Position numbers and translations under genes: made by a program | The notes under the pieces: model-generated | What the model was told of the DNA's origin: nothing | The model's input: only the letters and a program-made list of their open reading frames with translations | Database searches by the model: none | Shown here: positions 4,981-40,125 of the stretch, in pieces | How positions within the stretch are numbered: position 1 is the stretch's first letter | How the letters are laid out: each line of letters opens with the position of its first letter | Source of the DNA: an uncultured virus (IMG/VR IMGVR_UViG_3300017767_000007) | Lineage: Duplodnaviria; Heunggongvirae; Uroviricota; Caudoviricetes | Length of the DNA stretch: 64,000 nucleotides | IMG/VR virus record: IMGVR_UViG_3300017767_000007 | Reading direction: 5' to 3' (one strand)

Positions 4981-5403
4981 TCACTCCTTTTTCTTTATTG
5001 GTCTTAGAACAGTATTATTTTTCAACTCATCCATTTCATGTTTGTGAGTTTGAGCAGCCTTTTCTAATTCATGCTTATGCTTTTGAGCCAACTTTTCTAA
5101 GTCTATCATGTGTTCCTTTTGAGAAGCATCTCTTTCTCTATTATGCTTTAAGTCTGTTGGGATATTTTCAACTTCTTGTGACTGTTCGGATTCCCACATA
5201 CGGAGAACAGTTTGTAAAGCAGGAGCAGCAGTTCCGCCTATGATTGCGATAAGTGCTATGAAACCATCTAAGTTTTCCAATACAACTTCAGGCTTCCAAA
5301 TACCCATACCAACAACTGAACCACAGGCAAGAAGCCATAAGTATATTGAAGGGATAACGGTTCTCTTTACCATTCTATCGTTAAAAGTGTCTTGTTTACT
5401 CAT
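4981..5403 (-). CDS. Two-TM membrane protein with coiled-coil tail
   Basis: Two hydrophobic segments followed by a charged helical region. Confidence 0.6.
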   Translation of the reverse strand: MSKQDTFNDRMVKRTVIPSIYLWLLACGSVVGMGIWKPEVVLENLDGFIALIAIIGGTAAPALQTVLRMWESEQSQEVENIPTDLKHNRERDASQKEHMIDLEKLAQKHKHELEKAAQTHKHEMDELKNNTVLRPIKKKE

Positions 5404-6814
5404 TTGAAGTGCCTCCTTTATCTCCTTCGTTGATTTCTTGTTGAGGTCGAGGACTTATAGGTCTTTCTGATAGTTTCTTACCTTCTTTAAAATCTGCACC
5501 TTCTGATACAGGCTCAAACCCAAGAATTTCTCTTGCTTCATTCCTTGTTATAATACCGTCACGATACCCTAATGAAACCCTTTGGTATTCTTGATAGTTA
5601 TTTTCTTCATCAACAGGTTCAAAGTATAATTCAGGTAAGTCTTTCTTTGTACTAACAACACCCTTCATTTCACAGTGATGTAACCAAAGTTTGTGTACTG
5701 CTTGAACAACGACTTCTTGTAGCCTTGCGATTGCTTGCATAGACCACATATTAGCATTAAATGTGGCAGCAAATGTTGAACCTGATTCTTGGCCAGCAGC
5801 AACACGAGGCACCTGAAGAACAGCGGAAATGTCGCTATTAATCATATCAAGGAATTTACTGTTATCTGGGACATTTTTCATATCCATTTGTTGTATTTGC
5901 ACATAATCAGGTAAAATTGGGATTTGGTCAGCACGAAGATTTTCCAGCAATTTACCAACTTCAGTCATAATATGGGATAGTCTTTCACGCTGTTCCTTTG
6001 GGTCAGAGATATGTTCAACAGCCTTCATATCAATGCTGATAAATTGCTTTGTCATGCTATCTTCAATAGCAATACGATTATTCATTGTGTTGTATTTAGC
6101 ACGAATTGCCTGTTTCAAACTGCTAAATCGAGATGCACCCCATACACCATAAGTCCATCTGTTTAACCTATCCATCCACCAATTAGAGCGATAGTCAATT
6201 TTGATGTGAGATATTTCATCTGCTGGTATTTCTAATTCTCCATGTTGCATTTCTCTAAAGCGGTATGTGACCGCTTTCATTATTGGGTCATCTTTGCCGT
6301 ATGCTCTTGGGCTTTTGCTTGAATTAGGTCTTGAATCAACTATGGTGACTTGGGTGATAGGGATGCTTTGTAGGTCAGTAATACCTATTCCTGCCCTTCC
6401 AACAATCTTATCTATGGAATTACCATAAACTATAAGGTTTCGCATTGTGTTAATGATAAAGTCATCAAAGTCTATGGCATCAACAAATTCTTCAATACAC
6501 ATACGAATCTTTTGATTCTTGGCTTTTGAATAGTCAATCTTGTATTTGTTGCCTGTAAGGCTGACAGCTCTTACTGCACCGTTAAGTTCGGGGTCAAGTC
6601 TTAGCATATCATCGTACAAATCAAATTCAGTATCATACTTCGACCCGTATTGCTTGTAGCCTTGTGTCCTCATTGCCTCAGTTTCAGTTAGTATATCTTT
6701 GATAGAAGCAGTAAATGGTGAACCAATTGGCGAATTTAGTGGAAATTCGACAACTTCTGCTGTTTTTTCAACTTTTTCTGGAGTTCTGCCAAGAATTCTG
6801 TCGAAAAGACCCAT
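5396..6814 (-). CDS. Portal protein
   Basis: 472 aa; MGLFDRILG start; 'GIITRNEAREILGF' C-terminal portal motif; first gene of head operon. Confidence 0.9.
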   Translation of the reverse strand: MGLFDRILGRTPEKVEKTAEVVEFPLNSPIGSPFTASIKDILTETEAMRTQGYKQYGSKYDTEFDLYDDMLRLDPELNGAVRAVSLTGNKYKIDYSKAKNQKIRMCIEEFVDAIDFDDFIINTMRNLIVYGNSIDKIVGRAGIGITDLQSIPITQVTIVDSRPNSSKSPRAYGKDDPIMKAVTYRFREMQHGELEIPADEISHIKIDYRSNWWMDRLNRWTYGVWGASRFSSLKQAIRAKYNTMNNRIAIEDSMTKQFISIDMKAVEHISDPKEQRERLSHIMTEVGKLLENLRADQIPILPDYVQIQQMDMKNVPDNSKFLDMINSDISAVLQVPRVAAGQESGSTFAATFNANMWSMQAIARLQEVVVQAVHKLWLHHCEMKGVVSTKKDLPELYFEPVDEENNYQEYQRVSLGYRDGIITRNEAREILGFEPVSEGADFKEGKKLSERPISPRPQQEINEGDKGGTSNE

Positions 6815-8828: not shown

Positions 8829-8972
8829 ATGAGCGAACATCATAGGTTTTGTGAAAAGGTATACTGTAAGTTTTGTGGCTTTGCTACAGGAATTATGGAA
8901 GCGTCAAAGGCAATGGCTGGTAAATGTCCCCACTGCAAAAAAGAAGGGGGGTTGATGCCTCTTGGGTATTAA
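8829..8972 (+). CDS. Small zinc-ribbon protein
   Basis: CKFC...CPHC from ATG 8829. Confidence 0.5.
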   Translation: MSEHHRFCEKVYCKFCGFATGIMEASKAMAGKCPHCKKEGGLMPLGY

Positions 8973-10446
8973 CACCACTCGTATGAGCCTTTTAAGGTCA
9001 AAAAACGATATTAAGTATTTCTATGAATGGTTAGGTTATACATGGGGAGAGCATATAGATGAATGGGTCAATCTTTATACTGATAGAAAAGATGCACAGG
9101 TTCACAGGACTTGTATTATTGCGCCTCGTGACCACAGTAAATCAACAACCCTCCGTATTGTATTGCTACACCATGCTCTTTTTCTAAAGTGGCGTAGCAA
9201 ACCTTTTACTTGTTGGTTGTTTTCCGCAAGCAGGGATACTGCTTCAAGGCGTTTACAAGAAATAAGAGAAGATATTCTAAAGCATCCTGAATTGTCAAAG
9301 TATCTTGATACTAAGCGTGGTGGCAAATATGAATTGTTTTTTACTAATGGCGCATGGATAAGAGCCACATCTGTTGGTTCTGCTATTCGTGGTGAGCATC
9401 CAGCCTGTATTGCTCTTGACGATGTTCTTATGGATATGGGAGATATGTCAATGGATTCAGTTAGAGGTTGGCTTAGAAAGGTTGTCACTCCTATGTTGTC
9501 TCCAGGAACCAGCCTATATTGTGTTGGAACTCCTATGGCTATGACTGATATTTACCATACTGAAATGTTAGGTAATAAGGTTTGGAAAGCAGGCGTTTGG
9601 TCTGCAATCCTCAATTGGGATGAATACAAAGCCGACCCTGATAATGTTAAGCCAGAATGCCTTTGGCCTCAACATAGACCCATAGATTTTATACTTGAAC
9701 AAAAAGAGGCTATGCAGGAATTAGAATTTACTCAAGAATACCTTTGTAGAGTTATTGATGAAGATTCACAAGTATTCCCAAGAAAGATAAGCCGTCAAAA
9801 TATGGATATGGAATTAATGTTAGAAAAGGAAAAATTTCATGATGGCAAGTATGTAATTGGTTTTGACCCCTCACATGGATTAGGAAAAGACTACTCAGTC
9901 CTTGTAGTATTGAGGCAAGACTCGGATGGTTACATTTATCTCGTTGATATTTGGAGAAAGAATGACTTTCCACCTGAAAAGCAGGTTAATGTCATAGCGC
10001 AGTATAACGAAAGGTATAACATGCCTCCTATCGCTATTGAAGATGTAGGGTTTCAAAGGTTGTATAATGCCATACTTATGCAAAAGGGAGTTACTATTGA
10101 TTACAGACCGTCTAAAGCAAGCAACAAATCCCTAAAGCAAGGGCTGATGAGCAGACTTAGAGCATGGTTTGAACAAGGGAGAATTGTATTACCCTTCGGA
10201 GATGAACCGACTCGCAGGGTTATCAGATTATTTTTAGAAGAGTTAGAAAGTCATGCCTGGAAAAATGGTGACATAGTGGACTTAGGAAAACACAATGATA
10301 TGGTTATGGCCTTCGCTCACGCCATAGACCAATTCATTATGCCAACCAAACATGAGTCATTTAGTATGTCAAGCACTTCTCTCAACAACTGGCAAAATTC
10401 TACTGAATCTCCAAAACCTGGCGGAAAATTCCCATTTTTCTTTTAA
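8962..10446 (+). CDS. terL: Terminase large subunit
   Basis: Walker A variant APRDHSKST, Walker B IALDD, VGTP coupling motif, nuclease IGFDPS and HNDMVMA. Confidence 0.92.
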   Translation: MGINTTRMSLLRSKNDIKYFYEWLGYTWGEHIDEWVNLYTDRKDAQVHRTCIIAPRDHSKSTTLRIVLLHHALFLKWRSKPFTCWLFSASRDTASRRLQEIREDILKHPELSKYLDTKRGGKYELFFTNGAWIRATSVGSAIRGEHPACIALDDVLMDMGDMSMDSVRGWLRKVVTPMLSPGTSLYCVGTPMAMTDIYHTEMLGNKVWKAGVWSAILNWDEYKADPDNVKPECLWPQHRPIDFILEQKEAMQELEFTQEYLCRVIDEDSQVFPRKISRQNMDMELMLEKEKFHDGKYVIGFDPSHGLGKDYSVLVVLRQDSDGYIYLVDIWRKNDFPPEKQVNVIAQYNERYNMPPIAIEDVGFQRLYNAILMQKGVTIDYRPSKASNKSLKQGLMSRLRAWFEQGRIVLPFGDEPTRRVIRLFLEELESHAWKNGDIVDLGKHNDMVMAFAHAIDQFIMPTKHESFSMSSTSLNNWQNSTESPKPGGKFPFFF

Positions 10447-10576: not shown

Positions 10577-10864
10577 TAGGCTTATTTGTCCCCGATGGCG
10601 GGGGCGGGGGGGCGACTTCCTACGGCATGCGTCGTGAAAAGTATGGCTATAGTAGTGTAAACTACGGTGGTGTTAAGGGGCGAAGCGTATAAAAAAGTGT
10701 TAAGGGTTCATAGGTGTAGAAACGCTACAAATCGGTTAGATGCCGAACCTATGGGCGAAGCCATAGCACTATCCAAAAAACGGATGTATAGCCATAGACC
10801 TTCCCGATGCGAAGGTGATACGATAGGTGATTGACCGATAAAACAAGTATAGCGAATAAGCCTA
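10577..10864 (+). ncRNA. Candidate structured ncRNA / long 5' leader
   Basis: Closing stem 10577-10588/10853-10864, inner 10-bp stem 10642-10651/10787-10796, several hairpins. Confidence 0.6.
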
Positions 10865-10915: not shown

Positions 10916-11287
10916 ATGGCAAAAAACCAACCAAAGGCACAAACAAGCGTGGTTAAAGCGACACCAAAAACGCAACTTAACGCAATGGGGAAGCGCACAA
11001 AGCGTGGATTCAATGCGGAAGGTGTAGCGAATGGCTTGAATAAGGCTATTCGATGCGGTGAAGACTACTTAGAAGCATACTATATGGGCGAATACTACCG
11101 TTCATCAAATGCTTGCGACGGTGTAATTGCATTCATTAACGGTGCAATTCAATATGCCGAAGCGTATGTGGTCAAGGCTTCCGACGATGGCAACGACCTT
11201 GATGCAATGACTTCCAAGTCCATTGCTAAAGCGATAGGTTATGTCAAGATGTTAGAAGGCTTAACGCACACCAAGCAACAAGTTTGA
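10916..11287 (+). CDS. Hypothetical early protein, basic N-terminus
   Basis: GGGGGTG RBS; contains no CAG/GAG/CTG/CTC in any frame. Confidence 0.75.
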   Translation: MAKNQPKAQTSVVKATPKTQLNAMGKRTKRGFNAEGVANGLNKAIRCGEDYLEAYYMGEYYRSSNACDGVIAFINGAIQYAEAYVVKASDDGNDLDAMTSKSIAKAIGYVKMLEGLTHTKQQV

Positions 11288-11332: not shown

Positions 11333-11643
11333 CACACATTATGTGTGAATCCCATGCTTAGACCTAAGCCGTTCTTTAACGGGGTGTGATTTTGACACCA
11401 ACGATAGCAACGGGGGACTTAACGGGATTAACAAGGCGACCCATGCCATAATGAATAGATGGGCGAATATGGATAACGACACAATCCACGCATCACATAG
11501 CGATAGATGTGACCCTTTGGCCGAATGGGTGACAATCGGCCACCCTAACGGATAGGGGGATTGCATACGCTTCTAAAGGATTAAGTTGAATACCTAAAGG
11601 CGCACATGATAAACCCATGAATGTGCGTGTGTGCATCCCCCCC
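11333..11643 (+). ncRNA. Candidate structured ncRNA
   Basis: At least eight adjacent hairpins and nested stems in an intergenic gap. Confidence 0.6.
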
Positions 11644-11649
11644 GTAATT

Positions 11650-11844
11650 ATGGAAGAATACAATATAAACCAATTTTGTATAGGTTGCGAAACCATACAT
11701 CATAATTCAATCGTAATGGTTGAAATCGAAATGCAATTAATAGACGGGTCAATACTTGACTTCAAATTATGCGAAAGGTGTTATGCCACTATGAAAGCAC
11801 CACAAGAATGCGTGGCAATATTAGTTAAGGGGTATGAAGCATGA
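11650..11844 (+). CDS. Small zinc-finger protein
   Basis: CIGC...CERC; likely ATG 11650. Confidence 0.55.
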   Translation: MEEYNINQFCIGCETIHHNSIVMVEIEMQLIDGSILDFKLCERCYATMKAPQECVAILVKGYEA

Positions 11845-12032
11845 AGTCCCTATACATGCGAAATAGAACCCTATACAACCAACTACAAAGGCAATGTGCC
11901 GAATACAACAAGAAGGCACTACAATGGTGTTTCAACCGCCCAAGCATGGGGTATGCTATGATACACCCAACCGAAGATAAGGTAGTTATCTTCGATACAA
12001 ACAATAACACAATCACCCTTAAGGAATTGTGA
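11841..12032 (+). CDS. Hypothetical protein
   Basis: ATGA overlap with previous gene. Confidence 0.55.
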   Translation: MKSLYMRNRTLYNQLQRQCAEYNKKALQWCFNRPSMGYAMIHPTEDKVVIFDTNNNTITLKEL

Positions 12033-12448
12033 ACATGGTGGATTGGGTTGGGGGTCATGCCCCCTTCCCGACCATACACATGTTAGGAAACATTGTAATT
12101 GAAGGCGAAGTAGTTGTAGCACTTTGTTTGATTGTTGGCTTGATGCTTGGATGGTATCACGCACACATGAAGGCATTTGCTATGGCGGAACAAGATGGAA
12201 CACCAAAGCGTAGGCACAAATACTTCAATATACCCGTTATATTGGATATGCCTGAAACCCTGAAATATACGGGGCATTTAGGATTGCTTGAAGATGCAAT
12301 AGCATCAATCAAGGGATTGTCTGAATTAGCCGACGACGATAAGGAAGACCATCAACTTCATCTAAGATTGATGAAAGACCATTATAGACATGCGGAAGAT
12401 ATACTTTTTGATATTGGATGCGGTCTCGGTGAAAGAAGTCACGAATAG
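12029..12448 (+). CDS. Hypothetical protein with one TM helix
   Basis: VVVALCLIVGLMLGW segment. Confidence 0.55.
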   Translation: MNMVDWVGGHAPFPTIHMLGNIVIEGEVVVALCLIVGLMLGWYHAHMKAFAMAEQDGTPKRRHKYFNIPVILDMPETLKYTGHLGLLEDAIASIKGLSELADDDKEDHQLHLRLMKDHYRHAEDILFDIGCGLGERSHE

Positions 12449-12491
12449 ATGAATACCCATAATCCGACATGATACGGGGTCGTAATGAAGT

Positions 12492-12527
12492 CATAGGGGG
12501 TTCGCCCCCTATGGCTTCCCTTTTTTT
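12492..12527 (+). terminator. Hairpin + T-tract terminator
   Basis: CATAGGGGG-TTCG-CCCCCTATG then T7. Confidence 0.8.
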
Positions 12528-12553
12528 ATTTGTATAACACCAGATCTGCAGAT

Positions 12554-12742
12554 GAGATCTCCCCCGCAACCAAAAAAAATACTGCGTTCCTGCTGCTGCA
12601 CCAGATGAGGTCTGTATATGTAAAAAACACAGCGCCAGCCTGCTGCTGACGAGATCTCCTACAAAATAGTAAAAAACATCTGCGAGGTCCTGGGACCTCC
12701 CCCTGACAGACAAAACTAAAAGATAGCGCAGGCTGCTGCTGA
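12554..12742. repeat. Degenerate ~48 bp tandem repeat (about 4 units; further copy at ~13304-13355)
   Basis: Units of GAGRTCT/GGACCT ... A-tract ... GCG ... CTGCTGCTG. Confidence 0.6.
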
Positions 12743-12743
12743 T

Positions 12744-13079
12744 TCAATCTTCGTCAGGCCAGCAACTGCTGCATTCGCATCCAACATAGCACCAGGGTTC
12801 TTCAGACTTAGGCTGCAAAATAATCTTTGGTGGGCCTGCATCTTCAGCCCAGGGGTCAAATTCTTCTTCATCAGCAACAACAGGTTCTTCCTGGTGAAGC
12901 GTTTCCAGCATCCACAGGACGGATTCAACTTGGTCAGGTCTTAGCTGGCCATTGTTCTTGTTTACAGGAATCTGGGATTGGAACGCCTTATTGCAGGAAG
13001 GGCAGACCCATTTGTTGCCCAAGCAGGCCTCCATTACTATGCCACATTCGCAGGCAATCTGTACAGAAATCTGCATCAT
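12744..13079 (-). CDS. Zinc-ribbon hypothetical protein
   Basis: CECG...CPSC and C-terminal CECSSC. Confidence 0.55.
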   Translation of the reverse strand: MMQISVQIACECGIVMEACLGNKWVCPSCNKAFQSQIPVNKNNGQLRPDQVESVLWMLETLHQEEPVVADEEEFDPWAEDAGPPKIILQPKSEEPWCYVGCECSSCWPDED

Positions 13080-13219
13080 TCATCACCACACATGCAGGGC
13101 ATCAGAAATCCCTCGTTGTCTTTTATCGGCAGGCCTCGTGTTTTAAATCCACCACAAGTCAGGCATTGCTGCGCCATGACATTGCGGAAGATTGTTCCAG
13201 ATATGGTTTCGTTCCCCAT
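13076..13219 (-). CDS. Small zinc-ribbon protein
   Basis: CLTC...CMC; ATG 13219 about 22 nt after TATA at ~13241. Confidence 0.5.
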   Translation of the reverse strand: MGNETISGTIFRNVMAQQCLTCGGFKTRGLPIKDNEGFLMPCMCGDE

Positions 13220-13370
13220 GTAACTGCTACTACTAACTACTATATAAGTCTTTAAGAGGTCTCCACAGATGGTTATATCGGGAGAATTTAGCCTGCAGGC
13301 CAACAGATCTCCCCAGCCAGCATAATAAACAAAAAAAGCTGCGCCTGCTGCTGGCAGGCTTCCCAAACGG

Positions 13371-13407
13371 AAAAAGCTGATGCAGGGGCCTGAACCCCCG
13401 CACCAGC
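13371..13407 (-). terminator. Hairpin + T-tract terminator
   Basis: Minus strand GCTGGTGCGGGGG-TTCAGG-CCCCTGCATCAGC then T-run. Confidence 0.65.
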
Positions 13408-13555
13408 GGCCACCTGACTAAACAGGGTAATGCCCCATGAAACCCCGAACAGATCTCATAGGGCGGTTATGCGGTTGCTGTATCTGTGCCTTCCTCATCA
13501 CACGCATATCGGTATCATAACCTGCAAACCTGAAGATTGCTGCTAAGCTGAAGAA

Positions 13556-13891
13556 TCACTTCTTAGCCTTTGCTGCTTTTTTCTTCGGTGCTGCTTTAGC
13601 TGCTTCCTTTGCTTTCTTTGCGTCTGCAAGGGCTGTTGCCGTCTGCTTTGCCATCAAGGTTGCTCCCATAAGGTTTGTTGCTGCCTTTACTGTCTTAGCT
13701 GGGTGTGCCTCTACATTGCATAGAATAAGGTTCGCTACTGCTTCGCTGCTTACCACAAGGTTGCTGAACTCCTCTTCCGAAATGTTCCCGTCTGTTAGCT
13801 GTTGCATGTTATACATCTCAACTAATCTGCGTTGCTTGTTCACGGTATCGCAAATCTGCTTTTGCTGTGCGTCTCCAAATTTATTTGTCAT
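13556..13891 (-). CDS. Hypothetical protein with histone-H1-like Lys/Ala tail
   Basis: GGAGGTGG RBS before ATG 13891 (ORF track extends to 14005); ends AKKAKEAAKAAPKKKAAKAKK. Confidence 0.7.
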   Translation of the reverse strand: MTNKFGDAQQKQICDTVNKQRRLVEMYNMQQLTDGNISEEEFSNLVVSSEAVANLILCNVEAHPAKTVKAATNLMGATLMAKQTATALADAKKAKEAAKAAPKKKAAKAKK

Positions 13892-14303
13892 CTTTTCCAC
13901 CTCCTTCCCCTCTTGTCGTGGACTTTTTCGACCTGATTGGTCGGGCGTATTGCTGTCGCAATCTGATGGTATCGGGGCATCGCTACCTGTCATTATTTCC
14001 GCCATGAATCAGTTATTGCATCCAAGTATATAAGTGTTTAGCAGATGAGCACAGGGGGTATAATCACGATTTTTAGGCAGGTCTCCACAGCATGTTGGCT
14101 CAGGAAAAAGTAATCTGGTATGTCAGGTAAGTTTCCTGGCAGTACCTCACAGTTAAAAAAGATAATCCCTGCAATAAAGTTTATATCAGACCTCCTACTA
14201 AAAATATAATATATCAGTTCCTGTTCCTACAATCTCATAGAGGCTCAAGAACAGCACACTTCTTGGATTTCAAAATCAGGCTATTCCTCCAAACCTTTAA
14301 GTA

Positions 14304-14525
14304 TCAGATATCACATTCACAGGCAAATACAGCATTTGGAGCACCCTTCATACCAGCAGCCTGATTGTTGCCACCGCAGGTTTTACAGAAATGCTTCACA
14401 TTCAGCATACAAGAGGTATCATTGCAAAATCCTGTTCCATCAACATCAACACCGCAGATGCAGGTTTCGCTGGTGGTAGCACAAATAATGCAGGAAGGGG
14501 GACAAATATCAGGCATCAAATACAC
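14304..14525 (-). CDS. Cys-rich hypothetical protein
   Basis: ORF track; multiple CxxC. Confidence 0.45.
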   Translation of the reverse strand: MYLMPDICPPSCIICATTSETCICGVDVDGTGFCNDTSCMLNVKHFCKTCGGNNQAAGMKGAPNAVFACECDI

Positions 14526-14794
14526 CGCCAGCGTGTAGGAGGAGTTACAGTTTTACCACCAGGTTTTACTTCACCGCAGGAACATTCAGCAACATGAGGG
14601 AATTGAATCCTTGACAGTTTATTCAGCAAGATTGCAGATACTTCGTGTATGCAGAAGCCATCACCATGTTCAGCAACAACAGGTTTACCACCTATTTTCA
14701 GGCTGAACCATTCAAATGATTCCAGACTATCAGGACTATACCGTATATGAGTATGCCCCAGACTTTCTATTTCTATTGTGAAACCAGCAACCAT
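14516..14794 (-). CDS. Hypothetical protein
   Basis: ORF track; coupled to neighbours. Confidence 0.5.
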   Translation of the reverse strand: MVAGFTIEIESLGHTHIRYSPDSLESFEWFSLKIGGKPVVAEHGDGFCIHEVSAILLNKLSRIQFPHVAECSCGEVKPGGKTVTPPTRWRCI

Positions 14795-15126
14795 CAGATG
14801 TCACCCCACTTCAGGACTTTCCTGCTTTTGTATCTTTCAAAGCCAGATTTTTCTCCACCAACAGGATGCGGGATAACATTTTGCAGGCCGATGAAGAACA
14901 TCAGGTCATGGAGCACCATCAGGTTTTCTTGGTGGCATAATCGCAGACTTACCAGTTTTCTATATGCTATAATTTCAGCAATTTCAGATATACCCATGTT
15001 CAGGACATCAGGCCATTCTTCTTTTTCGACCAGCGACATCAGTTTTCTTCTATACAATTCAGGGATATATTCTATTCCCAAATGTTGCAGGTATTCCTCC
15101 AATGCTTCATCTTCAATCAGTGACAT
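14794..15126 (-). CDS. Hypothetical protein
   Basis: ORF track; coupled; heavy CTG usage. Confidence 0.55.
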   Translation of the reverse strand: MSLIEDEALEEYLQHLGIEYIPELYRRKLMSLVEKEEWPDVLNMGISEIAEIIAYRKLVSLRLCHQENLMVLHDLMFFIGLQNVIPHPVGGEKSGFERYKSRKVLKWGDI

Positions 15127-15400
15127 CAGATTTACCCCACAAGTTCAGATTATACCATACAATACCAGCAACAACAGGTTTTTCCCTAATATCCGCACCA
15201 GATTGCAGACAATGCAGGCTAACGGGTGTCGCTACAGTTATGTTCAGGTGACCAGACCATATAGATACTTCTAACAGGTAGTCAGGTGTGTCGAGATTAA
15301 CCAATTGTTCATCAGTTAATCTGTCTTTTCGTTCTTCAGATTTTGTCAGGGATTTCCCCCCTTCAGGTTTTTCTTCCATGTTATGAGGTAGTAAGTTCAA
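15113..15400 (-). CDS. Hypothetical protein
   Basis: Likely leaderless ATG 15379 after TATA at ~15404. Confidence 0.5.
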   Translation of the reverse strand: MNLLPHNMEEKPEGGKSLTKSEERKDRLTDEQLVNLDTPDYLLEVSIWSGHLNITVATPVSLHCLQSGADIREKPVVAGIVWYNLNLWGKSDVTD

Positions 15401-15634
15401 GTATATAAGGTTTTAGCAGGTCTCCTAAGCAAGCCAAATCAAGCCATCAGGTCTCCTTTTATCGTTGAGATAGATAATATATTGTGTGTCTGGAGGTAGC
15501 ATCTGTCACCATGAGCGATAAAAAACCTAAAAAGCCTCTATTCCTGCTGCTCGACTTCCCAACAGACCTCCCAATCAATAGACTTTGACAGGCATCTGTG
15601 GCCTTCTGCATGGATAATAGACCAAAATTCAGAT

Positions 15635-15901
15635 TTACAATATTGACAGATATACCTCTTCACCAGTTTCCTCCCCATCATATACTATCTCACCGAACAG
15701 ACGAGTAAATTCTGCACCGTATGTTTCCCAGCAATTAAATTCATTGCATCTGCTTGAACAGGCTGGACCTGAACAATCGAGGAAATTTGGGTCATGTGTG
15801 AGAAACCACTCATGTTGCTGTTTTGTAATTGGTCGCCACAGATATTCAGTTACCATCTGATTCAACCTCCTTAACTGCGTCAAGCAGGGATATGTCGTCA
15901 C
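15635..15901 (-). CDS. Hypothetical protein
   Basis: ORF track. Confidence 0.45.
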   Translation of the reverse strand: MTTYPCLTQLRRLNQMVTEYLWRPITKQQHEWFLTHDPNFLDCSGPACSSRCNEFNCWETYGAEFTRLFGEIVYDGEETGEEVYLSIL

Positions 15902-15976
15902 ACTTCAGGCAACGGCTGGTATCACCAACAAGAGCCATCATCTGCGAACAATTGATACAAGCACGAGGAATACTGC

Positions 15977-16453
15977 TTAACATCTTAATTCCTCATCTGT
16001 GAACCACAAGTCATCATGGTTGGCTGTTCTATCTCTTATTGCCATTAGAATATCTGATGGGATTGTGAAATAACTGCCCTTGCCTCGTGTGAAGTCATAG
16101 TCAGTTCCTGTATTCATCCAACCTATTGTTGCCTGTTTGTACTGTTTGAACCATTGCATCTGCATAAACTGTGTCACAAGTTTTTGCCTGATAGTGTATT
16201 CGGCCTGTAATGGGACATTTGCGTCTGGGCAATGATGTTCCCTGCACCAATTTTCCCACAATTCATCTGATAATGCTCCTTCATGTTCAAGGATTATCTG
16301 TTCCCTGTCTTCGCTGTTCACCCAACCCATAATTCCTGATTCTGCGAAGTCCCATGCGTAGGGCTCCTCTTCCTCTTGGGTTGTTCCTGCTTGCTCATTC
16401 GTTAATTCCTGCCATCTGTATAGATGGTATGGAATCGCTGTTTCTTTTTCCAT
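15977..16453 (-). CDS. Hypothetical acidic protein
   Basis: ATG about 24 nt after TATA at ~16477. Confidence 0.7.
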   Translation of the reverse strand: MEKETAIPYHLYRWQELTNEQAGTTQEEEEPYAWDFAESGIMGWVNSEDREQIILEHEGALSDELWENWCREHHCPDANVPLQAEYTIRQKLVTQFMQMQWFKQYKQATIGWMNTGTDYDFTRGKGSYFTIPSDILMAIRDRTANHDDLWFTDEELRC

Positions 16454-16627
16454 ATTACGAGATAGATAGTTCCAATATATAAGGTTTTGGCAGAAGTTAT
16501 CTGTTTATTTTAATCAAGCAATCTGAATCGCAGTCGAAGCATACCAAATGCAGGGTATCATACGAATCTCCAACAGCAATGATATTATCGCTGCCACAAT
16601 CTGCACATGCCATGTAAAAATCTGAAC

Positions 16628-16897
16628 TCATACTTTCCACCCGTCTGCTGTTGCTTGTGCATCTGCAATCTTTTGAATCTTGTCAGACCATTCCTGCGTA
16701 TAACCACCTTCCCTGATAATCTGTCCGATGGTTTGTCCGTTATCAAGCCTCAAATACAGAAATCGTCTGGCCATGTCAAGGCTCATTTTATCTATTGGAA
16801 TCTCCTCAAAGAAGGTATGAGCAAGTGCTCCTATTATGCCCTTTAATTCGTGAATCTGCATTTCTGCCTTTTCTAAATCGGTAAAATCTGGATTCAT
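16628..16897 (-). CDS. Hypothetical protein
   Basis: Likely ATG 16897 just after stop of upstream gene. Confidence 0.55.
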   Translation of the reverse strand: MNPDFTDLEKAEMQIHELKGIIGALAHTFFEEIPIDKMSLDMARRFLYLRLDNGQTIGQIIREGGYTQEWSDKIQKIADAQATADGWKV

Positions 16898-16898
16898 C

Positions 16899-17453
16899 TC
16901 AATGACCACCACTAATGCTGGCTTCGTAGTAATCTGATTCGTATTTGGATATCTCACATTGCTCATCTTCGTCGTGAACATAATCTGCAAACTTGGTATA
17001 TTCCTCACAATCTGTATTACCATCGAATAAATCCCAGATATACTCAAACGCCCTATCCAGTTTTACTGATAAATGATTGTAAAGATTCCAAAAACTGCCG
17101 TAAAATGCTGGTTTGGCTACAATTGGCTCTTCGCTGAAGTGTTGCTTTGTCGTCTCCATACCCTGTATAGCGCATGAATAGTGTCCTGCTAATTTCAACA
17201 AAAGATTCTTTTGCTGTTCCATCTCTTCTTTAGTCCAATTTACATAATCTGGTGTAGCATCGTTATATCTGATTGATGCACCTAAAACTGACATAAGCCA
17301 TTCCGCCTCAATAACGGGTGGGGTATCTGGAACGCAACCAAATCCTGTAATTGCATTTTCCATTGCCTGTTTTTCCTCATCACTAAGATTTTCCCTGATT
17401 ATAATAGGTTTATCTGGTGCTGGTAATCTGAAATATTTTTCAATATCTGTCAT
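16899..17453 (-). CDS. Hypothetical protein
   Basis: ORF track; promoter at ~17507. Confidence 0.65.
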   Translation of the reverse strand: MTDIEKYFRLPAPDKPIIIRENLSDEEKQAMENAITGFGCVPDTPPVIEAEWLMSVLGASIRYNDATPDYVNWTKEEMEQQKNLLLKLAGHYSCAIQGMETTKQHFSEEPIVAKPAFYGSFWNLYNHLSVKLDRAFEYIWDLFDGNTDCEEYTKFADYVHDEDEQCEISKYESDYYEASISGGH

Positions 17454-17616
17454 TCGTTCTTCACTTCCCTGCTTTCTTTTCGCATAATATCAGATAGACC
17501 TAACTTATATATAAGGTTTTGGCAGATCTCCACAAGTCGTTCAGACGCCCAACATGGGGGATATAGGGAGTATCAGCAGGCGCAATTTCATGTGAGCACA
17601 AGATAAAAAACCTGAA

Positions 17617-17967
17617 TCATTCTTCTTCCTGCTGCTCGTCTTCTATGAATGCTTGCAGATGTTTTTCCGCCCTGTCTAACTCATCAATCTCTTTGTCATC
17701 ATCCCATGTGCAGGTTTTAAGCCAAACTGATGATACACCTGTATGGTCTGCATGTAATTCCCAATGCCACAATCGCTGGTTACTGTAATGTAGGTCGCCA
17801 AGAGGACAATGTGTTCTTTCCAGTAAACTATCTATTCGCAGGTTTACTGCAAGACTAATTTCTGATTTAGCAAAGAGGCTGATATGCTCAATACCGTATC
17901 TTGTTTTACATTTCTCTAACAACAGCAAAGAATCTTTGCTATTCCTGATTAGGATTTCGTAGGCCAT
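17617..17967 (-). CDS. Hypothetical protein
   Basis: ORF track; promoter at ~17992. Confidence 0.6.
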   Translation of the reverse strand: MAYEILIRNSKDSLLLLEKCKTRYGIEHISLFAKSEISLAVNLRIDSLLERTHCPLGDLHYSNQRLWHWELHADHTGVSSVWLKTCTWDDDKEIDELDRAEKHLQAFIEDEQQEEE

Positions 17968-18080
17968 GTATTGAGGTAAATACTAATAGTATTTATAGTT
18001 TTAGCAGACCGCATGAGCACTAATACAGATTCAGATCTCCTACGCTAAATACTTATATACTATTACTAATTACCTCTATT

Positions 18081-18190
18081 TGTTCCGTTAGGTGAAAAGA
18101 TGAAGCAGACGACACCCCCTCCAACGCTTTCGTTCAGCGTGTTTCTGATTTCTTTCATGTCTTTCGTTTGCAGATTTTCCCTGCGGAACA
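18081..18190 (+). ncRNA. Candidate ~110 nt stem-rich RNA
   Basis: TGTTCCG/CGGAACA closing stem starting about 25 nt after a TATA box; internal ACGCT/AGCGT hairpin. Confidence 0.45.
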
Positions 18191-18200
18191 CCTATTTACT

Positions 18201-18272
18201 GGGCTACAAGTATCAAGGAGATACACTGTCTTTGGTTTGGCAGAGGGCGAGGTTCAATTCCTCGGTAGGCCT
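18201..18272 (+). tRNA. Atypical tRNA-like gene (Pro-TGG-like, 8-nt anticodon loop)
   Basis: Acceptor GGGCTAC/GTAGGCC (1 mismatch), D stem GTAT/ATAC, anticodon stem CTGTC/GGCAG, T arm CGAGG-TTCAATT-CCTCG. Confidence 0.7.
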
Positions 18273-18308
18273 CCTATTCCACCCTAATACAGAAGTGGAG
18301 GTAATAAT

Positions 18309-18515
18309 ATGGTAAAGATAAGCAGAAGAAACAGTAAAGAAGTATGGCAAACAGATATACCTAAAGATAAACTCAGCAAGTGGGGTTATCCTGATGAAAG
18401 GTTTTTCAGTTTCAGCCGTTGTGTATGGCGAACAGAAGAAAAGTATGAATCCCTGTGGATTCCTCGACATTCCTCACACAACCCCTATAATCAATTGGAG
18501 GCATTAGATGTCTGA
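18309..18515 (+). CDS. Hypothetical protein
   Basis: GGAGGT RBS. Confidence 0.55.
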   Translation: MVKISRRNSKEVWQTDIPKDKLSKWGYPDERFFSFSRCVWRTEEKYESLWIPRHSSHNPYNQLEALDV

Positions 18516-18861
18516 TTTGAATGCAAAAGGCAGAACAGCAGTTTTTGATATGCTTGGAAGTCAGTTAATTACAGGTAAAGAATATCAATTCTTTGTCGCT
18601 GATAAGGATATGGCACTTCAGGGGCAACTCGATGATAATAAACTCGTAGCATTTCAGGTATGGCCTGGTGACGGCTCAACCCTCTTCATGTCCTTACGCT
18701 CAAATAGAATCGTATCTGAAAGAACGGCTGGTTTAATGGCTGTAAAGATGATTATTGACTGGTGTGAAGACCAAGAAGAGCTCGATTCAGGGGCAATTTC
18801 AGACAACCTCTATGACTTCTTAGAAACAGACGAAGGGAAAGCCCTGTGGGAGGGAAACTGA
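18508..18861 (+). CDS. Hypothetical protein
   Basis: GGAGG RBS. Confidence 0.6.
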   Translation: MSDLNAKGRTAVFDMLGSQLITGKEYQFFVADKDMALQGQLDDNKLVAFQVWPGDGSTLFMSLRSNRIVSERTAGLMAVKMIIDWCEDQEELDSGAISDNLYDFLETDEGKALWEGN

Positions 18862-19038
18862 TGGCTCATTACATGTATTGTAGTATTCCTGACTGTGATA
18901 ACAAAACAGATATGATGGGATTTGCTATCTGTTCCTCTTGTTTCCAAAAAGCAGTAGAAATAACACAAAAAGCAGAGGCATCCTCTTAAAATCTTATATA
19001 TTAGTAGGTAATAGCAGTAATAACACACAAAAGAACAG

Positions 19039-19575
19039 GTGAAACGAATGACAGAATTAAGAGGATTAGGATTAAAATGTTGTGGTCAGCAACGCAGGTA
19101 TGACAGAAAGATATTTACTGTGATGGGTTCACAGTCAGGTGCGGGACTATCAATGAGTTGTATCTGCGGTTATTGTGGTGCTTCACATCAGGTTAAACTT
19201 CCATACCCTCATTTTATCAGGCATCTTCCGATAAAAGACCAGATAGAATCTCTTAGCCACCACATGATACATTCGCAGATAGGCGGTCAGTATTGGTATA
19301 GTGTCAGGAAGATGCAAAGAAAGCACAGCATCGGCCAGCATAAGCAAATGCTCGACGCAGAAACCGATGAATTACACCACGCAAGAGGTTCTGATACAAG
19401 AAAATTCTTCAACCAATTAGAGCGTGAACTCATGGATAGGAATCTGGGGCTCGCATCCAAGAAACAGCAACTTAATTATTGGGACAGGAAGCACAGGCGT
19501 ATGGAACACTTTGATGAGAAGTGGGAGAAATTTATCGCAGGTCACAACCTATCGGAGGTGTTGTATTGGCAATAA
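19039..19575 (+). CDS. Hypothetical Cys/His-rich protein
   Basis: Own promoter; likely ATG 19048. Confidence 0.6.
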   Translation: MKRMTELRGLGLKCCGQQRRYDRKIFTVMGSQSGAGLSMSCICGYCGASHQVKLPYPHFIRHLPIKDQIESLSHHMIHSQIGGQYWYSVRKMQRKHSIGQHKQMLDAETDELHHARGSDTRKFFNQLERELMDRNLGLASKKQQLNYWDRKHRRMEHFDEKWEKFIAGHNLSEVLYWQ

Positions 19576-19964
19576 ATCTGTGGAAATTGGAGGACTACAA
19601 AGAATACCTCAGCGACTTAGGTTGGTCTGATGAAAGAATTGAAGATGAGGCCGAATACCGCTTTACAGATGTTCAGGGTGAACAAATCAAATACAGGATT
19701 AGACCTGACGGCTCATGGCATTGGCAGGAATTGTGTGATACAGGCGGATATTGGGAGCCAATAGAGGACCTAACAGAACACCTCCTATGGTATTTCAAAT
19801 ATACAGAAGGCGAGGGATTTAGATGTGTCTGTCATGATTCTCAATTCCTCACACTCAAATTAGTAAAGAACCCTGAAGGGTCTGAATACCCATACAGGTA
19901 TGAAGCAGATGATGACTGCGTATGCTGTCACCACAACAAAACTGATGCAGGAGTCCCCTCTTAA
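19521..19964 (+). CDS. Hypothetical acidic protein
   Basis: ORF track; true start probably later. Confidence 0.55.
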   Translation: MGEIYRRSQPIGGVVLAINLWKLEDYKEYLSDLGWSDERIEDEAEYRFTDVQGEQIKYRIRPDGSWHWQELCDTGGYWEPIEDLTEHLLWYFKYTEGEGFRCVCHDSQFLTLKLVKNPEGSEYPYRYEADDDCVCCHHNKTDAGVPS

Positions 19965-20022: not shown

Positions 20023-21189
20023 ATGAATGAAACAGATTTAGATATAGCAATGGGTATGCTGGAAGATGATGCAAAGGCCAGCAAAGCCCGTCAAGAACGC
20101 AGGAATAAAGCCATTGGGCGAAGGAAAGAGATAGAGGAAGAGTTTACAAGCAGGGTCATTGAAGCCCTTGAATCAGGCTCACCTCTTGGAAAGTGGGATA
20201 TAGGCCACAATGCTGCTGACCATCTTGGCGGAGGCTTCCCTCTTAACTTCAAAACAGGCAAACATTATCGTGGTATAAATGTATTTTTCCTGTGGTTTGC
20301 TCAAATGGATTCTGGAGGCTCATCTAAGTGGGGAACGAGGAAACAATGGTTCGACTATCTCCAAAGACTCTATGACAGCATTACCAAGAAGATGCCTGAA
20401 CACATGAAACCAGATATCAACCAATTCATACCTGAGGCTGGCGAGGGTTCACCTATTGTATTCTATAAGCCTGTTAAGGGTAAGAAGAAGGACAAGGCAA
20501 CAGGCAAACTCACTGACAAGGATGCCTGGATTCCGATGATGCGAGTTTATGAAGTATTCAATCAGGGGCAACTCAAACTTGACCCTGTTCTCAAAGCAAT
20601 GATGGGTCTGGAGGCACCAAGAGAATTACCTGAAGATGAAAGGGAAGCGAGGTGTTGGCAGATTGTTAATGATTATGTCAAGCGAACAGGTATCACCATA
20701 GAGCATAAAGGCACTTCCTCATATAACATGGATTCTGGAGGTAAAGATAAGAAGGGTCTGGTTGTGACTCCCGAAAGGGACTTCTTCAAGACACCAGCAA
20801 TATTCTGGGGTCATCTGTGGCACGAATTAGTGCATTCAACAGGTCACGCTCTTAGACTTAACCGACCTAAATCCTCCAACCTCAACACATGGACTGAAGA
20901 TGATTATGCTGACGATGAGATGTGGGATAAGTTATCTCGTGAAGGCTCTTATGCAAGGGAAGAACTCGTAGCGGAATTAGGTGCTGGTATGCTATGCCTG
21001 ATGATGGGCTTTGAATACGACACCAGACATGCAATATACCTCAAGTCATGGATTGCTGCTCTTAATGACGACCACTCAATGATTATCAGGATGGCTACGG
21101 CTGCTCAAAAGGCTCTTGACCTCATCTTAGGAACTGAATACGACAATAAGGAGGACGCTGAAGATGGCGCTGAAACCTCCGAATCCTGA
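20023..21189 (+). CDS. ardC: ArdC-like ssDNA-binding antirestriction protein with zincin domain
   Basis: PLNFKTGKHYRGIN, YEVFN, HELVHSTGH, YAREELVAELGA, YLKSW motifs. Confidence 0.85.
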   Translation: MNETDLDIAMGMLEDDAKASKARQERRNKAIGRRKEIEEEFTSRVIEALESGSPLGKWDIGHNAADHLGGGFPLNFKTGKHYRGINVFFLWFAQMDSGGSSKWGTRKQWFDYLQRLYDSITKKMPEHMKPDINQFIPEAGEGSPIVFYKPVKGKKKDKATGKLTDKDAWIPMMRVYEVFNQGQLKLDPVLKAMMGLEAPRELPEDEREARCWQIVNDYVKRTGITIEHKGTSSYNMDSGGKDKKGLVVTPERDFFKTPAIFWGHLWHELVHSTGHALRLNRPKSSNLNTWTEDDYADDEMWDKLSREGSYAREELVAELGAGMLCLMMGFEYDTRHAIYLKSWIAALNDDHSMIIRMATAAQKALDLILGTEYDNKEDAEDGAETSES

Positions 21190-33509: not shown

Positions 33510-33572
33510 GCCGAAACGACACGCTTATATACCCCTATGATAACCGAATAATAACAAGGAAAGGAATGTCCT

Positions 33573-34808
33573 ATGAATAATAACCAACCCGATATAGAAA
33601 AAGTAGCCAGCCAAATTGGTGTGTCTGTTGATGCACTTAATTCAAGAATGAACCAAGTTTCTGCTTCACAATCTGAAGCATGGAAAGCGTCAGGGTATGA
33701 CGATGATAAAATTGCATCTCTAACCCTTCGTATTTCAGCAAGACAACTACATTCTGAAGCAACCAAGATTAAGAATTCTGGTGCTACTGTCCTTGAAGGT
33801 ATGGCATTGCGCTCTCCAAGATACAAAGACTGGGGCAAACTGCGCTATGACAAAATGACTAATCAACTGAAGACTTGTGATGAAGCAGTTCGTTCTAACT
33901 TGATTGAACAGGGTGCTATCGTTCTGTTTGAAAACAACCATGACGGCACTTGGACTCGTCACATCAATGAATCTCTTCGTAATAAAGAAGCGTTTGAAAT
34001 TGGTGCTATTGAAGATTCAGTTTCAACTCCACATGCTAAGGCAGTTGAAGTTGATGAAAACACTATGTATTACATTGTTGCAGATAAGTCTTCTCCTACA
34101 TGGCCTTCTGGTGATTCTAATTGGAGATACGGTTCTCCTTCTCCTGTATCGGATAAGAAAAGAACTGTTTACTTCTTAGGTCGTAAGCAAGGCTCAAACG
34201 ATGACATTTCTGAAATCCAATTGGTATTTAGTGGTGACATGGCAGAAGCATCTTTCCCTACATTCGTTCCTGGTTCTATCGCAGTTAAGATGAATCAAAA
34301 GAACACAGTTGGCTATGCTAAGGCTGGTGTCACAAGTCTAAATGAAGACCCTGCTCTTGCTTCTATCTTCCCTAATGCACCTGTCATGTTTGATGGTGAT
34401 GCACCTGCTGGTATGATGGTTGATGCTTTGGGTGGTCTTGAACCTCAAGGTCGCTTCTTGAAAGGATTTGACTCTATGGCTTCATACCTACAATCAGTCC
34501 CTGAAAGTGAAAAGTGGACTTCTTATTGTGGCCTAATCGCTGAAGTAGTTCACATTGACCCTCGTGACAAAGGTGGATATACTATTACTGTTGGCGACCT
34601 TGACATTCTATCATCAGCACCGACTCAAGATATATGGGTTGATGCAGACCAAGAACACCTAATCAACTTTGGTGTGGGTTCTCAATTGGCTCTATTCGGT
34701 ACTGTATGGCAGACCAAAGAAGGTGAACATCGTTTCTCCTGTCAAGGTTGGTATGTTGTTGAAACTGTTGAAGCATTGGCTGTTGAAGAAGATGGGTGGG
34801 ATGCCTGA
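33573..34808 (+). CDS. Putative OB-fold ssDNA-binding protein (RPA-like)
   Basis: Position between RFC and ATPase; acidic C-terminus EEDGWDA; OB-like C-terminal strands. Confidence 0.5.
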   Translation: MNNNQPDIEKVASQIGVSVDALNSRMNQVSASQSEAWKASGYDDDKIASLTLRISARQLHSEATKIKNSGATVLEGMALRSPRYKDWGKLRYDKMTNQLKTCDEAVRSNLIEQGAIVLFENNHDGTWTRHINESLRNKEAFEIGAIEDSVSTPHAKAVEVDENTMYYIVADKSSPTWPSGDSNWRYGSPSPVSDKKRTVYFLGRKQGSNDDISEIQLVFSGDMAEASFPTFVPGSIAVKMNQKNTVGYAKAGVTSLNEDPALASIFPNAPVMFDGDAPAGMMVDALGGLEPQGRFLKGFDSMASYLQSVPESEKWTSYCGLIAEVVHIDPRDKGGYTITVGDLDILSSAPTQDIWVDADQEHLINFGVGSQLALFGTVWQTKEGEHRFSCQGWYVVETVEALAVEEDGWDA

Positions 34809-39811: not shown

Positions 39812-40125
39812 CATTTATATGTAATCAGCAGGAAGGACTTTATATGCACGATATAAGCACAGACAACATTGTCGCAGAAGTCCTCTGTCATGGAGATATT
39901 AACCGAACAACAGAATTTGAAGGGGAAGAATATATCCTTCAAATAACAGTAACTAAATTTGAAAACAAGTTATACCGTGATAAGCAGTGGCTCGTTGAAA
40001 ATTACATCAACAAGAACAGAACAATGGCAGACATTGCTGATAAAGCAAATGTTACTCCAGCAACAATCAATCAATGGCTCGTAAAGCACGAAATCCCTAC
40101 AAGAAGTCGTGGCAGACGCCAATGA
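39802..40125 (+). CDS. HTH DNA-binding protein
   Basis: RTMADIADKANVTPATINQWL. Confidence 0.7.
   Translation: MAITFICNQQEGLYMHDISTDNIVAEVLCHGDINRTTEFEGEEYILQITVTKFENKLYRDKQWLVENYINKNRTMADIADKANVTPATINQWLVKHEIPTRSRGRRQ

Follow-up and report, generated by a model that had tools for sequence, protein, structure and literature searches.

Strand-sorted trinucleotides in an early gene cluster

The DNA analyzed here is a 64,000-nucleotide stretch (hereafter the window) from an uncultured virus assigned to the Caudoviricetes (IMG/VR record IMGVR_UViG_3300017767_000007). Its 12-18 kb region is a presumed early cluster of small genes that would be transcribed as five leftward, leaderless units (U1 to U5) from near-identical promoters, each composed of a transcription factor B recognition element (BRE) and a TATA box. 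Within this cluster the trinucleotide SAG (CAG or GAG) is sorted between the two DNA strands, such that some genes carry it on the coding strand (S class) and others on the template strand (T class), where it appears in the coding sequence as the reverse complement CTS (CTG or CTC). This strand-pure and phased pattern of SAG, and of CAG in particular, is under selection at the nucleotide level and is specific to one viral clade. The strand placement of SAG is best read as a regulatory device.

An earlier examination of the letters alone (the sequence-only reading) had drawn attention to this region by counting about 37 CTG or CTC and no CAG or GAG on the plus strand at 13453-14009, about 30 against one at 15977-16453, and the reverse, about 19 CAG or GAG against three CTG or CTC, at 14794-15126. 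These plus-strand counts are correct to within one: CAG, GAG, CTG and CTC occur 0, 0, 27 and 10 times in the first interval, 1, 0, 23 and 8 times in the second, and 18, 1, 1 and 2 times in the third. The accompanying statement that all genes here lie on the minus strand also stands. Plus-strand coding within 14010-15500 was considered, given an open reading frame (ORF) of 175 amino acids at 14747-15274, but was rejected: four minus-strand ORFs tile 15379-14304, have minus-strand promoters and are better conserved than the overlapping plus-strand ORF (69% versus 61% identity to the related locus L002, and 86% versus 72% to L003), and distant homologues are found by the minus frames only. A count of substitutions by codon position across 14010-15500 is too noisy to decide the coding strand.

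The sequence-only reading further proposed that successive transcription units alternate in which strand carries SAG, and that the switch points lie near promoters. The carrying strand does differ between genes; the unit that switches, however, is the gene family rather than the transcription unit. Likewise, the switches at ~14010 and ~15450 are close to promoters, whereas that at 15977 falls between two genes of one transcription unit. Over the four U3 genes together (14304-15379), the plus strand holds 62 CAG, 8 GAG, 6 CTG and 2 CTC, and over 15951-17525 it holds 14 SAG and 87 CTS. Between these blocks, the minus strand of 15459-15976 is mixed, with 16 CAG, 8 GAG, 12 CTG and 8 CTC. The sorting is evident in codon choice. 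In T genes leucine is encoded by CTG in 5 of 6 and 11 of 16 codons, and glutamine and glutamate are nearly all CAA and GAA, whereas S genes shun CTG and CTC as codons altogether and use CAG and GAG. CAG is nevertheless not confined to one reading frame, as the S block of U4 carries it in all three (4, 13 and 4 times).

Codon shuffling does not reproduce these skews. When synonymous codons were drawn anew in 2000 rounds, with frequencies taken from 16 large window genes, the observed counts fell far outside the expectation: gene 13556-14005 has 29 SAG versus 12.5 expected and no CTS versus 13.8 (neither was equaled in any of the 2000 resamplings), gene 15977-16453 has 31 SAG versus 13.4 and 1 CTS versus 9.9, gene 16899-17453 has 31 SAG versus 13.7 and 2 CTS versus 13.7, and gene 14794-15126 has 18 CTG on its coding strand versus 3.4 (z of 9.6). 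When codons are permuted within genes, so that each gene's usage is unchanged, out-of-frame sites still deviate in the same direction, with SAG at 19 versus 14.4 (62/2000) and 19 versus 14.9 (90/2000), and CTS at 0 versus 2.8 (31/2000). A general purine skew, which the sequence-only reading had named alongside codon shuffling as something that would refute its proposal, also fails: coding strands of S and T genes alike are rich in purines (0.52-0.62).

The selected word is principally CAG, which occurs 165 times on the SAG-rich strand versus 55.5 expected (about threefold), with GAG barely raised (48 versus 33.8); on the SAG-poor strand, CTG is reduced to 21 versus 55.4 and CTC to 13 versus 38.1. 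Among longer words, CAGAT (38 versus 4.6) and TCAGG (23 versus 2.7) are favored. Of the sites that synonymous codons permit, 88 of 151 possible CAG in S genes and 61 of 87 possible CTG in T genes are used (58-70%). These data support the conclusion that selection acts on which strand carries SAG, and that this choice is heritable and goes with genes and promoters rather than with composition. Selection for unstructured mRNA was rejected as its source, since the folding energies of three mRNAs are indistinguishable from those of dinucleotide shuffles (z of -0.96, -0.99 and -0.91).

Phasing, promoters and the site-free stretch

For comparison with relatives, loci were grouped by their large terminase (TerL), with the ingroup defined by at least 80% identity and the outgroup by less than 70%. 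In the window and in L001, L002, L003, L006 and L007, distances between nearest sites on the same strand pile up at 8-10, 16-20 and 26-30 bp, and gaps of 11-15 bp or of less than 8 bp are avoided. The period is about 9.4 bp; the power in periodograms, at 9.3-9.8 bp, is modest, and the order is therefore short-range. No such lattice exists for nine control trinucleotides in the same DNA or in 11 outgroup loci, and CAG in 20001-64000 displays codon periodicity only. A gap-shuffle null keeps the gap distribution and is hence invalid, so the sites were instead compared with random subsets of the possible sites, against which gaps of 11-15 bp are scarce in S genes (4 versus 13.6; 0/1000) and in T genes (2 versus 6.2; 14/1000). 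GAG falls on the CAG lattice, whereas the synonymous alternative CAA lies in anti-phase.

Sites on opposite strands follow the same spacing. Head-to-head CAG>CTG pairs number 106 at a distance of 9, 78 at 10 and 10 at 11. Within 12252-17600, inverted pairs are enriched rather than avoided, as SAG-N7-CTS occurs 19 times versus 6.9 expected per offset, compared with 3 for N8 and 1 for N9. The 21 CAG-N6-7-CTG pairs in 12253-19600, ten of which lie within 12252-13452, have diverse sequences and are not copies of one element.

Fixed positions are found at the promoters as well. Those that we call class 1 (Table 1) have the consensus CTS-YY-AAAAY-CTTATATA, in which an A-rich BRE precedes CTTATATA, and are archaeal in type. 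For the five units on the minus strand, the ATG is located 29-30 nucleotides past the TATA box, and the mRNAs are therefore predicted to be leaderless. Nine of the 12 matches to this promoter type in the window have CTS exactly 11 nucleotides before TTATATA, the exceptions being the early promoter at 18052, a promoter of a second class (TTATATACCCC) and a TATA element in the site-free stretch described below. Among 29 ingroup promoters, 23 have CTS at -11, 12 have SAG at -21 and ten have SAG at -16, although those of L001 and L002 are orthologues of the promoters in the window and so do not count as independent. The 13 outgroup loci yield a single match to this type.

The longer word SAGRTCTCC, like the CTS word, is placed just upstream of the BRE/TATA sequence. 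Copies of this word, of which there are ten, preserve a tetranucleotide, GATC, that the virus otherwise rarely uses. In the 64 kb there are no occurrences of ACGT, CCGG, CGCG or CTAG, against ~107-230 expected for each, and AGCT and GTAC are strongly depleted; as far as composition can indicate, this is the pattern of heavy restriction-site avoidance. GATC is present nine times, seven of them in 12543-18034, where six are inside SAGRTCTCC copies or the AGATCT variant and one (13452) is in a near-match. Since GATC is near-absent elsewhere and yet present in SAGRTCTCC, this element is maintained in spite of the avoidance seen in the rest of the genome.

Several other elements accompany the transcription units. 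The sequence CCTGCTGCT on the plus strand, which is CAGCAGCAGG on the minus strand, is followed by a minus-strand T-run at the ends of leftward units (12589, 12639, 13344, 15543 and 17628); relatives have these probable terminator-associated elements too. The gap between U3 and U4 contains TATATCAGACCTCC (14178-14200), conserved in L001 and L002, which could be a weak element of the minus strand or else a plus-strand promoter directed antisense into U3. In promoters of a second type, TTATATACCCY, there is no upstream CTS; these occur in the replication module and upstream of the T-polarized 33573-35743 (positions 33524, 37491 and 42653 on the plus strand; 28003 on the minus strand).

Table 1. 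Coordinates of genes, strand blocks and sequence elements in the window
Feature	Position	Strand	Remarks
Portal gene	5396-6814		Pfam match
Large terminase (TerL) gene	8962-10446		Pfam match
Genes in the site-free stretch	10916-11287, 11617-11844, 11841-12032, start of 12029-12448	plus
Both-strand dense region	12252-13452		CAG and CTG each ~20 per 500 bp; also holds CAGCAGCAGG+T-run putative transcript ends and SAGRTCTCC elements
Unit U5 genes	12744-13079, 13076-13219		Within the both-strand dense region
S block, unit U4	13453-14009	minus	Gene 13556-14005 and ~100 nt 3' tail; SAG on minus strand only
T block, unit U3	14010-15450		SAG on plus (template) strand; includes 294-bp stretch down to the U4 start
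Unit U3 genes	15113-15379, 14794-15126, 14516-14794, 14304-14525	minus
Mixed stretch, end of unit U2	15459-15976		Genes 15846-15983 and 15635-15901; putative terminator near 15543
S block, start of unit U2 and unit U1	15977-17500	minus	U2 first gene 15977-16453; U1 genes 16899-17453, 16628-16903, 16497-16640
SAGRTCTCC elements (ten copies)	12541-18032	plus (all as written)	Two copies within 15417-15456
Class-1 promoter TATA boxes	13241-13248, 14027-14034, 15402-15409, 16476-16483, 17508-17515	minus
Class-1 promoter TATA boxes	18993, 19968, 21826, 32006	plus
Family-B DNA polymerase gene	40447-42645		Pfam match

The cluster is bordered by a stretch immediately after the TerL gene from which the word has been removed. 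Between 10491 and 12251, neither strand carries a single CAG, GAG, CTG or CTC, versus ~92 expected from window frequencies, and the resulting gap of 1762 bp is the longest in the window, the next longest being 198 bp. The same island, 1364-2320 bp in length, is present in 12 of 12 ingroup loci that extend past TerL. When the islands of seven diverged loci are pooled (12,428 bp), CAG/CTG occurs 0 times versus 354 expected and GAG/CTC 0 times versus 238; the proteins encoded there are only 30-50% identical between loci, yet the purge is kept. The CpG observed/expected ratio is 1.0 in the island versus 0.6 elsewhere, with CpG-containing triplets raised, as recoding to avoid SAG would give. About 425 bp of the island is non-coding DNA with G-runs (near 10590-10620). 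We also considered that another word might do the same job in distant relatives, and rejected this possibility: in 14 outgroup loci no other trinucleotide has a comparable free stretch (the best, ATA/TAT with 1163 bp in L029, scores 16 versus 65-72 for the SAG islands), and the outgroups have no lattice.

In every ingroup locus a dense region follows the island, with plus-only, minus-only and both-strand blocks, and orientation class tracks gene families wherever these are located. The four T genes have T-class orthologues in 12 of 12 comparisons (L001, L002, L003 and L006), some at 34-46% protein identity. In L001 and L006 the S genes remain S, and two S families carry sites on both strands in L002 and L003. 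Absence from relatives, which according to the sequence-only reading would tell against its proposal, applies only beyond the clade: the pattern is present in the ingroup, and the site-free stretch, the arrays, the lattice and the class-1 promoter type are all missing where TerL is less than 70% identical.

The selection extends to certain genes outside the early region. Coding-strand SAG there is most strongly depleted in the capsid-like and tail-tube genes (9 versus 32.7 and 12 versus 30 expected, respectively), and the tail-tube gene is T-polarized, as is 33573-35743. For the capsid-like gene (1253-2161), the SAG:CTS ratio of the coding strand is 0.16-0.47 in the window and four ingroup loci (L003, L006, L010 and L020), versus 1.3-3.8 in six outgroup loci (L019, L023, L026, L027, L031 and L033), and the gene for an Mre11-like exonuclease shifts the same way. 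An ArdC-like gene (20023-21189; ArdcN plus zincin peptidase) has 53 CTS on its coding strand versus 26.9 (z of 6) with normal SAG. SAG has no genome-wide polarity, and the rest of the genome carries it at ordinary density on both strands.

The virus itself is an archaeal tailed virus of ~65.7 kb. A 46.8-kb public contig, 99.9% identical, bridges position 64000 of the window to position 1 (L020:1-1039, with ~1.7 kb between), pointing to a map of about 65,737 bp, circular or permuted, of which the window is ~97%. Besides the Pfam matches in Table 1, there are matches to a clamp-loader-like ATPase, a chaperonin, ArdC, a tail tube and a tape measure, and within the phage collection the polymerase is best matched by haloarchaeal tailed viruses. 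The chaperonin belongs to the GroEL type. According to the magrovirus description, several magrovirus groups, viruses of Marine Group II archaea, have chaperonins of this type; in this respect the virus resembles magroviruses. A scan of the window yielded no tRNA genes and no Rfam family at gathering score; a weak match resembling a counter-transcribed RNA (ctRNA) is found at 12460-12531 (30.3 bits versus a threshold of 45). Among 24 public runs, all in the form of contigs, the RNA runs X19 and X20 contribute, respectively, seven unstranded pieces at depth 2-3.6 and a single unstranded piece (15643-16018) with a depth of 30. The junction 12102>17184 seen in X5 is distrusted, as its flanks are ~18 nucleotides.

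Possible readers of SAG

A spacing near the helical turn that is common to direct and inverted pairs, together with the fixed positions by the BRE/TATA sequence, suggests that SAG is read as a half-site, and it points to protein binding rather than to a base mark. We therefore favor, tentatively and with rather less than even confidence, the hypothesis that SAG is the half-site of a cooperative protein that binds duplex DNA, and that the orientation of an array sets a gene-specific response. According to this model, a sequence-specific protein would read SAG, preferably as CAGRT, and adjacent copies would touch one helical turn apart, head-to-tail in gene-body arrays and head-to-head at operators. 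Co-oriented arrays would then allow the protein to coat a gene with a defined polarity, and this polarity relative to RNA polymerase would decide whether the coat blocks transcription or lets it pass. Genes with sense arrays would be shut off, genes with antisense arrays would escape, and the stretch after the terminase gene, having no sites, would be blind to the factor. Such a polarity rule could account for a module of early genes that keeps the opposite orientation, for highly expressed late genes purged of sense sites, and for a stretch that tolerates none.

Several observations weigh against this hypothesis. A cooperative binder should tolerate lone half-sites, but a word of 3 bp is wholly absent from both strands over 1.4-2.3 kb. 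Binding alone requires no strand purity, and it leaves unexplained the flip of the SAG:CTS ratio in the capsid-like gene 1253-2161. The spacing, at ~9.4 bp, falls short of the 10.5-bp turn of B-DNA, tail-to-tail pairs give a weak peak, and the effect on transcription is one that we purely infer. Furthermore, searches of Pfam (32 proteins) and PHROGs (61 proteins) gave nothing significant for any early protein and no DNA-binding protein, and for structural models of the two most widespread families (see below) Foldseek returned generic helical bundles only, with best E values of 0.15 and 0.5 and no informative match.

The first candidates for a reader, which we offer for testing, are the predicted proteins of genes 13556-14005 and 10916-11287, the latter located in the site-free island. 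Beyond L001-L003, no other families are found in the ingroup; these two occur in six and five, respectively, of seven distinct genomes. Both proteins are virus-specific with three helices; the first has an invariant stretch DTVNKQRRL and a lysine/alanine tail, and the second an invariant KRG...N..NK..R. Two AlphaFold models (pLDDT, the predicted local distance difference test, of 76-77) are generic three-helix bundles. With the 13556-14005 model, a wide VIA-align search reached Z values of up to 9.8, below the level that is meaningful for helical bundles, and ESM Atlas offered no usable match for 10916-11287. A profile search with the 13556-14005 family recovered 22 unannotated metagenomic proteins with no Pfam domain, and profile-profile comparison of the two candidate families gave a probability of 6.8%.

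Enzymes acting on such short sites exist, as exemplified by a chlorella-virus nickase at RAG and the Mom protein of phage Mu at SASNY, and it is conceivable, though unlikely, that SAG is the target of strand-specific chemistry in which a viral or host enzyme modifies the adenine or nicks the SAG strand. Strand-pure blocks would leave one strand intact or unmarked, which is what a nickase or hemi-modifying enzyme would select, and the site-free stretch would be fully immune. The absence of sites from 12.4 kb of pooled islands is indeed better matched by a model in which a single event does harm than by binding, the virus avoids sites elsewhere (ACGT, CCGG, CGCG and CTAG), and SAG in the capsid-like and tail-tube genes is found chiefly on the template strand, as expected if late genes had loaded templates. 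The sequence-only reading proposed one version of this idea, wherein a modifiable motif is placed on or off the template strand such that, on modified parental DNA, clean templates are expressed at once and loaded ones are muted until replication. It is so far unsupported, as no enzyme was found in the ORFs scanned, and the lattice and promoter positions favor binding; a host-encoded or novel modifying enzyme is nonetheless conceivable. The scan took in 54 ORFs of at least 110 amino acids from the whole window, together with smaller ones that lie mostly in or near the early region, and in these, many of them unannotated, Pfam and PHROGs identified no methyltransferase, Mom-like or other DNA-modifying enzyme. 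Nor was a clade-specific nuclease found in this ~97% of the genome, since the sole HNH gene (39802-40125) also occurs in an outgroup contig without the pattern. The same scan noted a P-loop plus GNAT fusion at 38636-39811 (phrog_11143, E value of 5e-97) and a small ORF with a weak GNAT match at 46294-46755 (E value of 0.006). Chemistry also fails to account for why CAG is enriched threefold, why 58-70% of possible sites are used, and for the shared lattice and the fixed promoter positions. The ordinary density of SAG on both strands in the rest of the genome likewise speaks against it.

Less probable still is a reader that acts on RNA, either an endoribonuclease or an RNA-binding protein, for which mRNAs with sense arrays would be short-lived and SAG-free mRNAs resistant. 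Orientation is indeed set relative to the coding strand, on both DNA strands, and the clade-specific purge in capsid-like and tail-tube genes is what resistance of highly expressed mRNAs would predict. However, the signal is not confined to the transcribed sense strand: fixed sites lie upstream of the TATA box, where that promoter does not transcribe them, inverted CAG>CTG pairs share the lattice, the site-free stretch is purged on the antisense strand and in non-coding parts as well, and T genes are enriched for CTG beyond their depletion of SAG. The three mRNAs mentioned above also fold like shuffles (z of -0.9 to -1.0). We give a slim chance to the second alternative of the sequence-only reading, in which oriented SAG steers or loads a strand-tracking machine such as a translocase, helicase or primase. 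Primases do start at trinucleotides (E. coli DnaG at CTG); within any one block the sites strictly share an orientation, their regular spacing could match the subunits of a ring, and the cumulative GC skew has its minimum near 17-18 kb, at the early region. Yet the orientation flips three times in 4 kb and follows gene families rather than the direction of replication or packaging, there is no genome-wide polarity, and neither promoter operators nor head-to-head pairs would be expected. Finally, it is highly improbable that the pattern is a functionless by-product of codon usage, amino-acid composition, purine skew, mutation bias or mosaic gene origin. The early region is mosaic among relatives and its coding strands are purine-rich, but the two classes do not differ in being so; synonymous resampling and within-gene permutation reject the idea, all frames carry the pattern, control words lack the lattice, and genes keep their orientation class even where protein identity is down to 34-46% and synonymous sites are saturated.

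Returning to the half-site hypothesis, a broader formulation is possible but more doubtful. SAG orientation might serve as an address, written in cis for one factor, that distinguishes four gene states (no sites, sense, antisense or both). This would constitute a code laid over the protein code across kilobases, with a factor-blind stretch beside the packaging gene at one end, and it would have reshaped the capsid and tail genes of the clade. If the arrays are binding sites, then kilobases of regulatory information reside in synonymous positions with strand choice as a variable, giving a compact genome a new way to set gene-specific behavior, and 'silent' sites would not be silent. Marine archaeal viruses of this kind are abundant and, like their hosts, uncultured; the analysis offers two small candidate proteins, and comparing an array with a synonymously recoded copy provides a sharp assay for such viruses. 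The signature, a word-free stretch plus strand-pure arrays plus a 9-10 bp lattice, could be sought in further viral clades, where the word may differ. If the chemical explanation should prove true instead, archaeal viruses would possess a DNA-modifying or nicking activity with a site of three nucleotides.

Comparison with known systems

A full-text literature search found no description of kilobase-scale, strand-pure arrays within ORFs, which is not proof that none is in print, and none of the systems compared here has them. Asymmetric short words kept in one orientation by selection are familiar from the EcoP15I sites of phage T7, from Chi and from KOPS. These are rare and hold one orientation per genome or replichore, and in T7 they are not enriched, whereas the word described here is 3 bp long, threefold enriched and flips between neighboring genes. 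Rather than a single orientation without inverted pairs, as for T7 and EcoP15I, orientation alternates at ~14010, 15450 and 15977; rather than long-range orientation by replication or translocation, as for Chi and KOPS, blocks of 0.5-1.6 kb flip between neighbors.

Very short purine words containing AG are also recognized in RNA, where RegB of phage T4 acts on GGAG and TRAP and HutP act on NAG triplets. As in those systems, such a word here may mark a temporal class of transcripts or be read as spaced triplets. The RNA systems, however, involve leaders, whereas the promoter positions, the inverted pairs and the two-strand purge observed here point to DNA.

Two hallmarks of operator and iteron arrays are present: a short putative half-site recurs at a fixed, near-helical-turn spacing in direct and inverted order, and sites are located at promoters (CTS at -11 and the ten SAGRTCTCC elements). 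In the heptads of the omega repressor, in ParR-parC and with protein p6 of phage phi29, short repeats are bound cooperatively in direct or inverted order, and in systems of this type a viral protein can coat DNA and switch early transcription. The resemblance includes short half-sites at near-helical fixed spacing, the importance of orientation combinations, and overlap with promoters. Those systems span tens to a few hundred non-coding base pairs, whereas the arrays described here extend over kilobases within ORFs, use most of the synonymous opportunities and vary the strand gene by gene; here the binding is a prediction.

Two further precedents concern the arrangement of early regions. The leading region, injected first, of the phages described in PMC12455610 is free of restriction motifs, is variable and carries early genes. 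Similarly, the virus considered here has, as known from its sequence, a region at one end of the gene map without a motif that is tolerated elsewhere. There the motif is a bipartite Type I sequence with few sites, whereas here it is a degenerate 3-bp word purged from both strands over 1.4-2.3 kb. In Sulfolobales rudiviruses, small early and anti-defense genes each carry a near-identical strong BRE/TATA sequence, and the viral repressor Aca8, a winged helix-turn-helix protein, is proposed to bind the shared sequence (PMC11065993). The early cluster described here, in a marine tailed virus rather than a rudivirus, likewise consists of many small, mostly unannotated genes, each after a near-identical BRE/TATA sequence. 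In the rudiviruses the shared sequence lies upstream only, whereas here the putative operator word also occupies the gene bodies, phased and strand-pure.

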